Origin: Octopus vulgaris
Taxonomy: Eukaryota
Length of the DNA: 64,000 bases
Reading direction: 5' to 3'
Assembly: GCA_951406725.2 (NCBI GenBank)
Contig: OX597815.1
Coordinates: 135,036,001 to 135,100,000, forward strand
Shown here one piece after another: positions 922 to 7,900 of this stretch. Made by a program: the position numbers and the translations under genes. How positions within the stretch are numbered: the first letter of the stretch is position 1; each line of letters opens with the position of its first letter. Below the pieces are notes generated by a model, which saw only the letters and a list, made by a program, of their open reading frames with translations, was not told the DNA's origin and made no database searches.

Positions 922-1781
922 CGAGGTCTGATTAAGAAGTATCTGTAGCCATAGTAATGAACCTAAAGCACAGAGTGAAGCTTCTTGGCACAGATTGATT
1001 TGAATTCTGTTGTGTTTGTGCACAAAGTTTTAACATTCTAGCTCACTTCCACTGTTTATAGCAGTACTTGGAAGGAAGGTGTGTAGCATGTGATCGTTGC
1101 ATTGACCCATAACAGAGAAAGTTGTCATGGTGATACCTGCTCAGAAGCCTACGAAAAGTTGCAGAAAGTGTATGGAGAGGAGTTGTATAAGTCACACACA
1201 AGTGTACAAGTGGTTCAGACATTTTCAAGATGGCCAAAAAAATGTCAATTTTGATGACTGCTCTGGGAGACCCACAGCCAGCGGAACTAAGTAAAACATC
1301 ACAGATACGTGTGAAACTGTGGGAAAACTGTCGAATCACCATCCATGAATTATCAAAGGATGTGCAGATTAGTTACAGTTCAGTTTAGTCCATTATCACT
1401 GAAGATTTGGGCATGAGACGCGTGTCTACCAAGTTTGTGCCAGAACTGCTTTCAGTTGCACAAGATCTCCGTGATTGTGTTGAGAACAATGAAAACTTTT
1501 TGGAAACTCTGCGTAGGCCTCTGAGCAGGTATCACTGAGCTTTTGACAAAATTTGATGTAGATTCTCTGTTCAACTTTCTCTGTCATGGTCAATGCAACA
1601 ATCACACGCTACATACCTTCCTTCCAAGCACTGCTGTAAACAGCAGAAGTGAGCTAGAATGTTAAAACTTAGTGTGCATGCACAGCAGTGTTCAAGATCA
1701 ATCTGTGCCAAGCGGCTTCACCCTGTGTGATTTAGCTTCATTATTATGGCAACAGTCTGGATACTTATTGATCAGACCACG
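922..1781 (+). mobile_element. Non-autonomous mariner derivative with ~230-bp inverted ends
   Basis: TA-flanked termini CGAGGTCTGATTAAGAAGTATC / GATACTTATTGATCAGACCACG. The internal disrupted frame reads EAYEKLQKVYGEE..VYKWFRHFQDG..SGRP..RITIHEL..IITEDLGMRRVSTKFVPELLS (mariner HTH region and WVPHEL-like linker). No catalytic domain. Confidence 0.9.
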
Positions 1782-1797
1782 TATATATATATATATC

Positions 1798-1831
<34 letters not shown>

Positions 1832-2020
1832 GAGAGAGACAGATAGATAGAAAGATAGATACACATGATTTTTAGTTCAGTTTGGTTGTAAAAGAATATA
1901 TCAATAATATGCAGTTTTCAAACCCACACTAGCATGGTAAAATGGATATGTATATATGTATTTGTGTGTATATACATACATGCATGTGTGTGCATACATA
2001 TATATATATATATATATATA

Positions 2021-2356
2021 TAAATTAGAAAAAAACCACCTTTTATCAATTCAAAATGAAAAATTTAATTATACCATCTAGAAAATTACATATAATAGAA
2101 ATATTAAATATAAGATAAAAAATAATATACCGATGATTAAGTAATGTGCAAAATAATAAATAAACGTATATAGCCACAAAACACGTGTCGTTATTCTACC
2201 AAATACATACATTTTATTTATTATTTTGCACATTACTTAATCATCGGTATATTATTTTTTATCTTATATTTAATATTTCTATTATATGTAATTTTCTAGA
2301 TAGTATAATTTAATTTTTCATTTTAAATTGATAAAAGGTGTTTTTTTTCTAATTTA
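2021..2356. repeat. AT-rich fold-back element (~145-bp arms, ~40-nt loop) embedded in (TA)n
   Basis: TAAATTAGAAAAAAACCACCTTTTATCAAT...GTGCAAAATAATAAATAAA is reverse-complemented at ~2207-2356; (TA)n on both sides. Confidence 0.9.
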
Positions 2357-2375
2357 TATATATATATATATATAT

Positions 2376-2729
2376 AACAATTGCAGCGAGGAAGGTGTTT
2401 ATAAGCCATTTAAGAAACACACAAAAGCCGTTCGATTCACTTCAACATTTAAGTTTAATTTGTCAAAATATTTTCGGTGCTAAAATCCGCGACCTGTTCA
2501 CTGACAAAAATCCGTGCTGCAGGAGATGCAGCACGGATTTTTGTCAGTGAACAGGTCGCGGATTTTAGCGACGAAAATATTTTGACAAATTAAACTTAAA
2601 TGTTGAAGTGAATCGAACAGCTTTTGTGTGTTTCTTAAATGGCTTATAAACACCTTCCACGCTGCAATTGTTTTCGTTTCAGCACACGATCTCAGATCAA
2701 ATTACTTGCTATGCGAGTACATCTCCGTA

Positions 2730-2730
<1 letters not shown>
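2376..2730. mobile_element. Near-perfect palindromic insertion in (TA)n, probable Penelope-like element end (inverted pseudo-LTR)
   Basis: Arms 2376-2521 and 2527-2672 with about 4 mismatches by eye, 5-nt loop GGAGA, one-sided extension 2673-2730, CpG retained, hammerhead-like motif in each arm. The palindrome is directly seen; the Penelope assignment is inferred. Confidence 0.65.
2540..2589 (+). ncRNA. Candidate minimal type-I hammerhead ribozyme, G3-C8 core variant
   Basis: Stem I TTTGTCA/TGACAAA; core GTGAACA plus extra G; stem II GTCGC/GCGAC with 8-nt loop; GAA; palindromic AATATT stem III; T at position 17. A second copy with a damaged stem II lies on the minus strand at ~2459-2508. Confidence 0.55.
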
Positions 2731-2777
<47 letters not shown>

Positions 2778-2845
2778 TGAAATTTGATTTAGTTTTTCTA
2801 AATTGAATTTTTCCCTGTAAGTTTGAAATAATATTCCCTCAATTT

Positions 2846-2877
<32 letters not shown>

Positions 2878-2885
2878 TATATATG

Positions 2886-3134
2886 TTCTTTTATTTGTTT
2901 CAGTCATTTGATGGTGGCCATGCTGGAGCACCGCCTTTAGTTGAGCAAATTGACCCCAGGACTTATTCATGCGATGGGCTTCTTTCAGTTTCTGTCTACG
3001 AAATCCACTCACAAAGCTTTGATCAGCCTGAGGCTATAGTAGAGGACACTTGCCCAAGGTGCCATGCAATGGGACTGAACCTGGAACCATGTGGTTGGTA
3101 AGCAACCTACTTACCACACAGCCACTCCAGTGCC
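2886..3134 (-). mobile_element. tRNA-derived SINE family A, internally deleted copy
   Basis: Reverse complement of the head and tail of the full copy at 20990-21400; central microsatellite segment missing. Confidence 0.85.
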
Positions 3135-3182
3135 TGTATATATATACAATATGCATGAATGTATATATATTTATATACATGT

Positions 3183-3216
<34 letters not shown>

Positions 3217-3225
3217 TTCACATAG

Positions 3226-3600
3226 CATCATTTAATGCTGGCATGGGTTGGATGGTTTGATTGGAGCTGGTAAAGCTGGAGCCACACCAGGTTCCATTGT
3301 CTGTTCTAGCATGGTTTCTATGACTGCATGCCCTCCCTAATGCCAACCACTCTACAAAGTGTACTGGGTGCTTTTTATATACATGCAAATATCATTATCA
3401 TAGTTTAACATTTGGCCTCCATGGTTTCATGGACTGGGTGGTTTGACAAGGTCTGATGAGTTAGAGGATTCTGTTAAGCTCCAATGTCAACTTCAACATG
3501 GCTTTTTCTTACGGCTAGGTGCTGTTCCCAACATGAACTACTTTACAGAGTGTAGTGGGTGCTTTTTTTCACAGCACCAGCACTAGAGAAGATTTCTTCG
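3226..3600 (-). mobile_element. Two tandem copies of an RTE-tailed short repeat family
   Basis: CATCATTTAA..GCATGGGTTGGATGGTTTGA..CCTAATGCCAACCACT..GGGTGCTTTTT. The family recurs at ~6480-6700 (opposite strand), 21430-21620, 22885-23100, 26630-26757, 32765-33236, 47710-47870, 55100-55325 (opposite strand), 59940-60170 and 60535-60665. The (GAT)n tail end resembles the RTE 3' fragment at ~5400-5640. Confidence 0.75.
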
Positions 3601-4619
3601 AAACTTGCAAGGTTAAGAGCCTAAATACTCCCTATAACTGAGAAGAAAGAAAAAAGATAAAGTGAGCTATTTTAGTAGGTGGGTAAGTATGGTGAGTGGA
3701 ATAGACTTCTAGTTGTGATAGGGTGGTAGTGAAGCGAGTAAGAGAGTAGTAGGGTAGTCCTAATTGGGATGAGGATGGCAGAGAACAGGGGAAGGCATTA
3801 GTGATAGGGATTATTGGGAAAAGTGGGTGTGTAGAATGGAAAAGTGTTAGAGTGAGTTGTGTAGGTGAGGTCTAGGGCTTTATAAGAGCATAACAGGAGA
3901 TATGAGGGAAAGGTTGCAGGAAGGGAACAGTGGATTAGAGTGGAGAGAAATCCAGAGAGAGTCACTGAAGGAAAGAGAAACGTTGGGGTAAGCCAGAGGC
4001 AGAAAGATGAGAATGAGTGAAGGAGCAGAGAAGCTATAGGGAGAAGATTTGAGAATGTAAAAGAAAATGGAGAAAAAGATGATGGAGCAGTGGGGAGCAA
4101 AAACAGTGAAAAAGACCCTGGAGAATAACAGAAAGATAGAAGGAAGGAAATGAGCAAATTGTGAATGCAACAAAAGCTTCCCATGAGGCAGTGGAAAGGC
4201 CACCAATGAGATGTCAGTGGAGAGAGGTTGGTGAGAAAGAGAGATGGTTAGACTGAGATGTAGATGGTTGCAGCAAGAGCAGTGAGGGAAATGCTTAAGG
4301 ACACCCTAGAATGGTGAGGGCAGGTAGTGAGACAAAGATAAGAAATGTTGTTTGAATATATCATGAAATATATGAAAGATATCACAAAAAATTTTCTTCT
4401 TTTTTTCTTAAATCATGTGAATAATTTGATTCAAAACAACTCCTTTAATTTCTGGATCTGATGAGAATATTTCAAACATCATTTTTTAAAGTAACATTGC
4501 ATTCTGCTTTTAAACAATATATACAAGGCTATATATAAAATATGTTTATGTGTGTGTGCCTATACACATATATAATATATATATACACATGCACATATTT
4601 ACATTTGTTCATGCCTGTT

Positions 4620-4920
4620 TTTCCTTGCAAGAAATGAAAAGATATACAGTCATTGTTGCTATATGTGTGGAAAACAGAAATTGCAAAATTTCTAAATGTC
4701 ATAAAATCTTTTGTGCACTAAGTTCAGATGGATGTAGACGGCACTGACAGGAATGTTTGAACTGTATCAAAGAAACAAAAGTATTTTAAAATTCAGACAC
4801 CACAATTCACCCAATGTGTTCAAAACATTATCAATGATGATTCTGCAAAATCAATGATGATTGGAGAGACCAATTCATATCAGCAAAGACACAGGAAGAC
4901 CATTTCATCTATGCCAAGTA
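4620..4920 (+). mobile_element. Degenerate 5' fragment of a Tc1/mariner (maT-like) transposase
   Basis: QEMKRYTVIVAI..(E)IAKFLNV resembles the N-terminal HTH of DD37D transposases; heavily decayed. Confidence 0.4.
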
Positions 4921-7900
4921 GTTACTTAACAAGACTAAAAAAAACCCACAAACATGGCCTGCTTTGGTTCTTCTCGAATGAGAGAACCTCTGATCTAGCA
5001 TGAGAAATGACAGATTAAGTGTATGTGTGTATCTGTGCACACATGAATATACTTACATATAAATAAGTATAAACACACATATACATATATGTATCTATCA
5101 TCATGATTTTATGTCCACTTTCCATTGGAATCTTTAAGCCTTGTATTTTACATCATGGGATTGGAGGACAGTTTGTAAGCTTATATTTGTATCAGAAAGC
5201 AGAAATTGTAAGCAGATTATAGGTTAGTGCTCCAGTGGTGAGATTTTATGAAGAATTTGATATGAAAATGACAAGAGTCTGAGATATATTAAAGGTGAAG
5301 TAGAAACTCAGTTTATTTTCTTTAATGCAAATTGTAAATTCTCAGCTATGTCTGTAATAGAGCAAAATTGAGCAGAGGGAAAAGCTGGTGTGATAGGAAT
5401 GAGATGTAGTGTTCAAGACCAGGCAGGTAAAGTTATGGAGAAAGTTAGTTGCCAAGCACTCAAACTGGATATAACCTGTCAAAGAACAAGACATAGGAAG
5501 AGATGAGGTGAAGTAAAGAAGATTAACCTCAAAATGTTGAACCACACAAAGGGGATGACAAAGAACTGCAATACATAGCAACATGTAATACTGGAGATCT
5601 GCTCACCCATGAAAACATGGCAAAATGGATATTAAAATGGTAGAAGAAATGAAAGTTGGCTGTGTAATATCTACATTTGGGTTTCTTGCTCACTACATAA
5701 ATCTCCTACTGCTATTTCCCTCCTGCATTACCTTCTCGCCTATCACTGTACACCTGTGTAATGACAGGTAAGCATTAGATCTGTATATGTTAAACTGCAT
5801 CCTACATTTTCCCTTTATCATTCTTCCTCGCCACATGTGTAATGCGAGATGATATTAGACTTGTCTGTGTGTAATCCCTTTACGATTACTCTTCTTTATT
5901 ACTAGTCCCTCTTGCTCACATCATTCCCTTCCACAATGTCCATTACTGTCATCACTTTCTTTTTCTCTCCCTTTTATCAACAACCAACCCTACTGCTATT
6001 CATCATTTTCTCTTTCTCTTACCATTGTGCAGTCTCATCATCTTTATTGCTACTCATCACACTTTTACCTTTTTATTGGTGACACACTACTCTCACTCTC
6101 TCTCATCATCTGTCATTCCTCTTCTGTCACCAGTCTTCGCATCTATCACTCATTCACCATATTGCTCATGCTGCTTTTCTACTCAATTCCCCTACCAGCA
6201 TGTATCAGCTTATCATAATTACTCTCTAGTCACTCACTCCTTTATCACACTCTTGGCCTATCCATATATTTCATCTTATTCTCCCTTCTATTACCATCTC
6301 TCATTCATTCTTGATCATGCAGTCTTGAATGAATTAGGACATTGTAGAATAGAATGGACAATTTGGACTTACCAAGACAGACAACCTCAGCAAGGCTGCT
6401 GTCAAGATAAACATACTCAGTAAAGGTTGTTGGCAAAAGAACTGAGCCAATATACAATAGAAAGAATTCTCAAGTCTTTCTGAAGGCACAACAGATTCTC
6501 TGTAGCTGGTGCTACAATAAAATACACTTAGTACACTCTGTAAAGTGGTTAGCATTAGGAAGGGCATCAGCTGAAGAAATCATGCTATAGATGAAATATA
6601 TAAGTGAGATGTAGTTCTTTGATCCATCTAGAAGGACAGCAAGACTGTAACAACCAGTTCAAATGATGCCAATATGGAAAGCAGACATAAAATGATGTTG
6701 ATAAGTACATGCACGCATGTGTGTGTGTGCGTATACATGTCAGAGGGTGAAAGTGCATAAGCTAGTGGTTGGGCTCATGACTGCAATGTCATGAGTTCAA
6801 TTCTTGGACCAGGCAGCATGCTGTGTCCTTGAGAGAGGTACTTCATTTCACATTGCTTTTGTTTACTCAGCTGAAAATAAGTACCCACTAGCTGTAGGTG
6901 CGACTCTCTATCCTTCCAACCATTCAATCCCCAATGTTCTACAGGGTTAAGAGTGAGTCTATGTCTGCTTGTCAGTAATTAGGGACTTAAAATAATTAGC
7001 AAATGTGTGGGAGCAAACAACTATATAAGCTACTCATTTACTAGTGATACCTGAAATTATATATATATGTGTATATATATGTGTGTGTGTGTCTAGGTGT
7101 GTATATACACACACATGAATGTATGTGTGTGTGTGTGATATTTTCTAGAAATGTTAATATTTTGTGTTTGGAATATTGGATTCTATGTATCCAGTAATAA
7201 TTGCTATTTTGGTCACTGTTATTGATATCGGTACCATGAAGCAGCAGCATTTATATAAATTCAACAGTTTTATATCATATAATTTTACAAAATATGCATA
7301 CATTTCTATATTAAAGTATTTAAAAAAAAAATATGTAACTTAAAGAAACATACACAGCTTATAAGCACATATGTTTCAGTGTCTTAGTAACATTAGTTAT
7401 GTCTGTGGAGTAGAGAACAAAAAAAAAAAACAACAAAAAACTGATACCTTTCATGATAAAGGTTCTAATTGGGAACTGAACTGAAAAAAATTACATGGAA
7501 TACACATATGTATGTATGTATGCATGTGTGTGTGTGTGTGTGAATGAATGCAGGTGTGTGTGTGTATATGTACATATATATAATGAACAAATAAAAACAA
7601 TTTAGACATTGATCCAATTGGACTGTTGCAGATTGTGACATTAAATGTTAGAATAATACATTGGAAAACCGAGATTACTTGACAATAACTCACCTAAAAT
7701 TATATACATGTAGATTAAAGCATTATACCAAAATACCTTTTCAGTATCTAATACAGAACTGATTCACTTAAAATATTGATTTCACCTCTAAAGTTACACA
7801 TTTTTATGTAGGATACACTTGATTAAATCATTTAACTGGATCTTATTTTAGAAACCCTCAGATTGTTGACAGTCAATATAAACCTCAGAGGTATTGAGCT

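Follow-up and report, generated by a model that had tools for sequence, protein, structure and literature searches.

A hammerhead motif with a G3-C8 core pair in the leader of an octopus Penelope-like retrotransposon

A type I hammerhead motif in a pseudo-LTR

Does a hammerhead-like motif in Octopus vulgaris, which carries GUGAACA in place of the literal core CUGANGA, represent a natural hammerhead whose tertiary C3-G8 pair has been swapped to G3-C8, and does it cut? The motif lies in a 64 kb stretch of contig OX597815.1, referred to here as the window, and consists of the following parts.

2540..2589, plus strand: type I short-stem-III hammerhead motif, intact copy, recognised by sequence, fold and descriptor; identical in long-ORF elements
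2547..2553, plus strand: core G3-U4-G5-A6-A7-C8-A9 (GTGAACA), with G3 at 2547 and C8 at 2552
2555..2572, plus strand: stem II of 5 bp (2555-2559/2568-2572), first pair G10.1-C11.1, with an 8-nt loop II
2573..2582, plus strand: G12-A13-A14 (GAA, 2573-2575), stem III AATATT (2576-2581) and U17 (T 2582)

Stem I has 7 bp (2540-2546/2583-2589), and an extra G stands at 2554, between the core and stem II. By hammerhead numbering, the cut is predicted to fall between 2582 and 2583. The initial annotation had read the stems and the palindromic stem III from the letters, which are exactly as it gave them, and its stems I and II are those of the minimum-energy fold (-14.7 kcal/mol, z -3.4, with 1 of 200 shuffles as good). 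It was also right that the core departs from the CUGANGA pattern, as GUGAACA can be read directly. The topology is that of type I, with a three-way junction, stems I and II, and the 5' and 3' ends in stem I. A Watson-Crick 3-8 pair, U4, G5, A6, A9, G12, A13, A14, A15.1-U16.1 and H17 are all present, as are the traits of the short-stem-III hammerheads of Penelope-like elements (PLEs): an extra nucleotide between 9 and 10.1, G10.1-C11.1, a palindrome of 15.2-16.2 with loop III, and location in a pseudo-LTR (pLTR).

We searched the window with a type I hammerhead descriptor that accepts any Watson-Crick 3-8 pair, and it matched at 2540-2589 alone. The same descriptor gave 10 loose matches in 150 dinucleotide-shuffled windows, none of them combining stems of that length with a palindromic stem III. 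Chance does not account for the motif at 2540-2589, which is real. Comparison with the Rfam models, which the initial annotation had proposed, returned no hammerhead model among the 100 matches listed (E up to 10). At the gathering score, Rfam also missed the two C3-G8 sister copies that were tested; because canonical-core copies are missed too, its silence is uninformative.

The motif lies in one arm of a palindrome.

2376..2672, no strand: 146-nt inverted repeat (arms 2376-2521 and 2527-2672), marking where a solo pseudo-LTR inserted with its 5' junction inverted
2459..2508, minus strand: second motif copy, in the inverted arm, with two substitutions (2477-2478) that disrupt stem II

The arms are 97% complementary. 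One hammerhead per strand had been proposed; the palindrome stands, but only one of the two copies is intact, the minus-strand copy having lost two stem II pairs (fold -11.0) and failing the descriptor. In the window, the copy consists of a solo pLTR whose inverted 5' junction falls within (TA)n; many other copies share this geometry, and the palindrome is only a 5'-truncation and inversion product of that pLTR. A folding prediction turns the whole palindrome, as RNA, into a single long hairpin (-243.8 kcal/mol), which bears out the earlier caveat that read-through would sequester the motif. The window copy therefore appears passive and is unlikely to act itself.

Several other features were seen in and around this locus. 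A second palindromic repeat at 2001-2376 of the window (164-nt arms, 98%, 48-nt spacer) is bounded by (TA)n, adjoins the PLE copy and holds no hammerhead by descriptor; another palindromic copy of it sits in locus L126. At about 940-1750 there is an internally deleted DNA transposon, which we take to be mariner-type, with inverted ends (1000-1107/1588-1695) around broken transposase-like frames. In sequencing runs guessed to be RNA, A-to-G differences occur at 2571, 2579, 2617, 2637 and 2638, two of these sites being inside the motif; DNA-like runs lack them. At 2617 and 2637 they make up 7-18% of depth in runs X2, X6, X13 and X7, whose RNA type is a guess, and at most 0.2% in the DNA-like runs X1, X15, X16 and X17; some T-to-C accompanies them. 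If the guessed run types are right, the pattern would fit possible editing of double-stranded palindromic read-through RNA.

The 194 bases from 2527 have many genome matches at 94-99%. Walking upstream from pLTR copies led to RT and GIY-YIG fragments and then to long elements, among them L123, with the structure pLTR-ORF-pLTR, and L113, with a 1,025-residue open frame. The identical 50-nt motif is found in the pLTRs or ends of the long-ORF elements L113, L114, L115, L123 and L124, which establishes the link to Penelope RT/GIY-YIG frames that the initial annotation had asked about. The element protein has a YVDD RT motif and, at its C terminus, a GIY-YIG domain above the Pfam cut-off; RT was called by this motif and by relatives named reverse transcriptase, P0005 having no Pfam RT match, and the best of 99 protein relatives is an Octopus vulgaris protein of that name. 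A single RT and GIY-YIG ORF between pLTRs identifies a PLE with a C-terminal endonuclease (EN), and the tandem or inverted insertions, optional tail and AT-rich targets are PLE habits. A CxxxCxxC linker precedes the EN. A CX2-5CxxC linker before the EN (PMC8557442) is, along with phylogenetic placement, a mark of the Neptune or Nematis clade, to which the linker suggests that the element may belong.

2639..2730, plus strand: PLE ORF from its start codon through ~30 codons; the frame continues into the ORF in L123 and L114
2673..2730, plus strand: optional 'tail' between two 3' ends

The N terminus encoded here aligns by eye with that of a sister family. The motif lies in the 5' UTR, 50 nt before the ATG at 2639, and coding constraint on it is ruled out by this downstream position of the ATG. 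Among 100 copies, 3' ends fall at 2665-2675 in 40 and at 2721-2734 in 56, a two-cluster arrangement like the PLE 'tail' described for an anole element (PMC11167929), and AT-rich sequence follows the 3' end in 68. At L071:3897-6594, 16 pLTR units are joined by (TA)n, each with a G3-C8 motif.

Extent and origin of the G3-C8 pair

To count core variants we used exact genome-wide matches to the core 14-mer, 9,906 in total: 8,796 with G3-C8, 724 with C3-G8, 330 with G3-G8 and 56 with C3-C8. Reversed-pattern controls gave 61, 15, 14 and 12 in the same order. The genome thus holds about 8,800 G3-C8 copies, and the transposon family of the window, family A, has about 9,000 copies. As a motif-independent sample we took the 100 matches that head the list of 11,242 for a 19-mer downstream of the motif, all on one contig. 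The motif was whole in 65 of these 100 copies; 70 had a recognisable core, which was G3-C8 in 65 and C3-G8 in none. In an older subfamily, G3-C8 was present in 98 of the 100 matches listed of 1,972. A distant lineage, 72-74% identical downstream, has G3-C8 in 5/7 copies found by DNA similarity (the rest being T3-C8 and C3-C8) and in 2/2 found by pattern; its loop II is different and its stem III is AATT rather than AATATT, a 2-nt indel that keeps the palindrome. These counts indicate that G3-C8 is fixed across family A. Two family A copies with C3-G8, L077 and L080, were rejected as support, since their numbers are about those of double decay in ~9,000 copies. The palindromic copy at L080:1434-1545 has arms that differ at both core positions, G3-C8 against C3-G8, through either double decay or exchange with family B.

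Conservation of the core relative to its flanks, another proposed check, gave a divided answer. Subfamily-level changes avoid the core, falling in loop II or keeping the pairing (a U-G pair results from 2585 A>G), and in 35 copies found without the motif loop II is the most variable part, with 17.5% differences against 1-7% in the stems and core. In young copies, however, the core is no better conserved than the flanking UTR (3.3% vs 4.3%, and 2.6% vs 1.8%), as expected for neutrally decaying insertions.

Copies with a broken 3-8 pair are informative as well. G3-G8 copies are six times commoner than C3-C8 copies (330 vs 56) and occur in several subfamilies; 13 of 20 inspected G3-G8 matches belong to family A, scattered over the tree, and five close opposite-strand pairs were present among the 100 G3-G8 matches listed. 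The spread over subfamilies and the opposite-strand pairs suggest that some broken-pair RNAs transposed, and a broken pair therefore seems no bar to copying. A basal G3-G8 or C3-C8 intermediate lineage was sought on a low-resolution tree of 128 copies and not found, such copies being scattered.

Where C3-G8 occurs, it is mostly in relatives. Inspection of 30 C3-G8 matches assigned 24 to family B, an older related family carrying a homologous CUGAAGA motif, and six were excluded as unrelated or doubtful. We rejected the 2x2 counts as evidence of strong covariation (83 C3-G8 expected if positions were independent), because the 24/30 belong to family B, which was picked by a pattern demanding C3-G8. 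A protein search led to family C (55% identity over 815 residues), which serves as an unbiased outgroup. In the corresponding position before its ATG it has C3-G8, G10.1-C11.1, GAAA, a 2-bp stem III and U17; this young sister family has C at position 9 instead of A9. At loci L116-L122 (e.g. L118:1624-1680, ORF 1772-5698), a young sister PLE family whose hammerhead has C for A9 has numerous, almost identical open frames of about 1,310 residues, each with a long Asn-rich insertion.

We aligned 12 rows across families, with rows and structure chosen by hand and the rows related and partly pre-selected. Columns 3 and 8 pair in 12/12 rows (7 C-G, 5 G-C), 90% of cells are paired compared to 20-47% in slid controls, and 5/12 pairs changed on both sides, although one stem II G-C/A-U change could reflect two CpG transitions. 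U4, G5, A6, A15.1, U16.1 and G10.1 are invariant. The initial annotation's reading of G3-C8 as a swapped C3-G8 gains from the aligned columns of the sister families, which carry C3-G8. Its proposed covariation check is borne out by 3-8 pairing across families but not by repeated change among copies, the change being one event between families. Because the rows are related and partly pre-selected, the alignment indicates a single fixed, compensated double change that arose on the branch leading to family A and has persisted.

Transcription start, cleavage and function

To look for traces of transcription and cleavage, we mapped the 5' ends of the 100 sampled copies.

2523..2524, plus strand: putative transcription start at A2524, from insertion junctions; the preceding G is absent from the element's upstream DNA

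Forty-eight copies start at 2516-2530, 35 of them at 2524-2527. Among all fetched copies beginning at the AGATGC word, the base before that word is G in 16/28 unrelated-flank and 16/26 inverted junctions, compared to 0/36 copies that retain the element's upstream DNA. Reverse transcriptases can copy the mRNA cap. The extra G was likely copied from a cap, which would place a capped start at A2524, 59 nt before the cut. As an alternative, 2524 could be a splice junction, and the DNA upstream of the start does resemble a 3' splice site with its branch point; the sampled copies showed no upstream exon in common. Near the cut site, 3/100 copies start at 2580-2586 against 2.8 expected from background, and none at 2583. 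As there is no excess of starts near 2583, cut RNA does not appear to be the template, and the junctions point to uncut RNA as the source of new copies under the cap-start and splice readings alike. A 19-codon upstream frame (2526-2585) begins 2 nt after the putative start and runs to a little beyond the predicted cut; subfamilies with a 9-nt loop have a shorter version.

The explanation that we prefer, with moderate confidence, is that the motif is a family-wide G3-C8 leader hammerhead in which slow self-cleavage persists and probably requires dimer formation or assistance from the element's own protein. Selection on source elements would keep the compensated core. Transcription would start at ~2524, so that cleavage at 2582/2583, 56 nt before the ATG, would take off a capped leader of 59 nt. 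New copies would be made from RNA left uncut, and cut molecules would go to translation control or decay; alternatively, cutting may split tandem read-through transcripts into their units. Between two molecules, the AAUAUU duplex is predicted to be very weak (-0.2 kcal/mol) and cofolding, which cannot model tertiary folds, prefers another dimer. Short-stem-III PLE hammerheads reportedly cleave as dimers (the work meant is Lunse et al., RNA Biol 14:1499). In fungal viruses, 5' UTR type I hammerheads drive cap-independent translation (PMC13725137), and by analogy the octopus leader might do the same. Against cleavage mattering speak the lack of cut-site starts, the G3-G8 copies that seem to have transposed and family C without A9, where the C is a hint of relaxed constraint.

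These observations also bear on a tentative second explanation, which we consider possible: the motif descends from a hammerhead and no longer cuts usefully, its fold being a structural or protein-binding leader signal or part of an internal promoter, and its 3-8 pair kept for folding or fixed by drift in a master lineage. The uncut origin of the retrocopies, the hundreds of G3-G8 copies and the missing A9 in family C all agree with this. So do two results on the anole PLE, whose insertion in vitro is unaffected by hammerhead mutants and whose cut site lacks RNA-seq ends (PMC11167929), and the location of the motif 16-65 nt past the putative start, a region that holds an internal promoter in D. 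virilis Penelope (PMC2377424). Yet U4, G5, A6, A15.1, U16.1 and G10.1 are the same in all 12 rows, both tertiary 3-8 partners changed with complementarity kept, and the anole motif, equally traceless in its genome, cuts with protein (PMC11167929).

Less probable by far is that the motif works mainly in retrozyme-like tandem arrays giving circular RNAs of about 170 nt. The 16 head-to-tail units of L071, spaced at about 170 nt, and the proposed pLTR origin of animal retrozymes (10.64898/2026.07.22.740005) would suit this model. However, the L071 units join at (TA)n and about 2530, away from the cut site, and their stem I has a C-to-T change. Most copies lie dispersed or in inverted arrangement, and the window locus is an inverted solo pLTR, not a non-LTR retrozyme. 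A chance look-alike within a repeat, with no hammerhead kinship, would explain the empty Rfam result, but Rfam misses C3-G8 sister copies too, none of 150 shuffles was as good, and the PLE pLTR position, the alignment to canonical-core relatives and the homologous CUGAAGA of family B contradict this very improbable idea.

A bolder version of the preferred leader hammerhead, that an active natural G3-C8 ribozyme behind a capped start switches RNA between copying and translation or decay and has been missed by CUGANGA searches and Rfam, is in our view unlikely; if it were true, eukaryotic genomes would harbour swapped-core hammerheads that have gone unseen. If the motif cuts at all, a third Watson-Crick option at the tertiary 3-8 pair would be in natural use at scale and search descriptors would have to be broadened; should it not cut, the fold would be conserved for another reason. 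Matched G3-C8 and C3-G8 families in one genome, with long ORFs, make a tractable system for the purpose of PLE hammerheads, and the mapped 5' end adds evidence that new copies come from uncut RNA.

Comparison with known hammerheads

The octopus motif shares with the metazoan PLE hammerheads of Cervera and de la Pena 2014 (PMC4209133) type I topology, the extra nucleotide, G10.1-C11.1, a tiny palindromic stem III, a permitted U17, the pLTR location and nearby opposite-strand copies. Two earlier caveats dissolve in this comparison. The extra G corresponds to the nucleotide between 9 and 10.1, which that paper describes, with G10.1-C11.1 and the palindromic stem III, as a PLE hammerhead trait, and the supposedly weak UUU triplet is met by many rows of its alignment that end in U17. 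The extra nucleotide is G in the octopus and H in the published consensus, one Nasonia motif there having G. The core pair differs: it is G3-C8 here, whereas only C3-G8 and U3-A8 appear in PMC4209133, with no G3-C8 row in the part of its alignment covered. The PLE hammerheads reviewed in PMC6765202 also have the short palindromic stem III, the PLE link and the dimer model.

The closest experimental counterpart is PAc, from the Poseidon element of the anole (Frangieh et al. 2024, PMC11167929), a hammerhead that likewise lies at the pLTR-ORF junction of an element with two 3' ends defining a tail and AT-rich targets. Uncut RNA is the template in both, as judged from genomic junctions here and in vitro for the anole. 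In PAc, the ORF begins within stem II, while the octopus motif is wholly in the UTR, and the octopus protein has a Neptune/Nematis-type CxxxCxxC linker, unlike anole Poseidon. Cleavage by the anole hammerhead needs the PLE protein; a single C3G or G8C change kills it, and the double mutant partly restores it. That double mutant has the same core as the octopus motif, engineered in PAc and natural, fixed in thousands of copies, here.

A natural compensatory 3-8 change is also known from the U3-A8 hammerheads of Perreault et al. 2011 (PMC3088659). U3-A8 amounts to two transitions, whereas G3-C8 takes two transversions, after which position 8 is a pyrimidine; the main-text section of that paper covered here does not name G3-C8. 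No natural G3-C8 was found in the literature searched, which did not extend to the alignments of Lunse et al. and several supplements, and in the printed sources covered G3-C8 was found only as an engineered, partly active laboratory mutant. What appears new here is the natural, putatively catalytic G3-C8 core in an otherwise known PLE hammerhead type.
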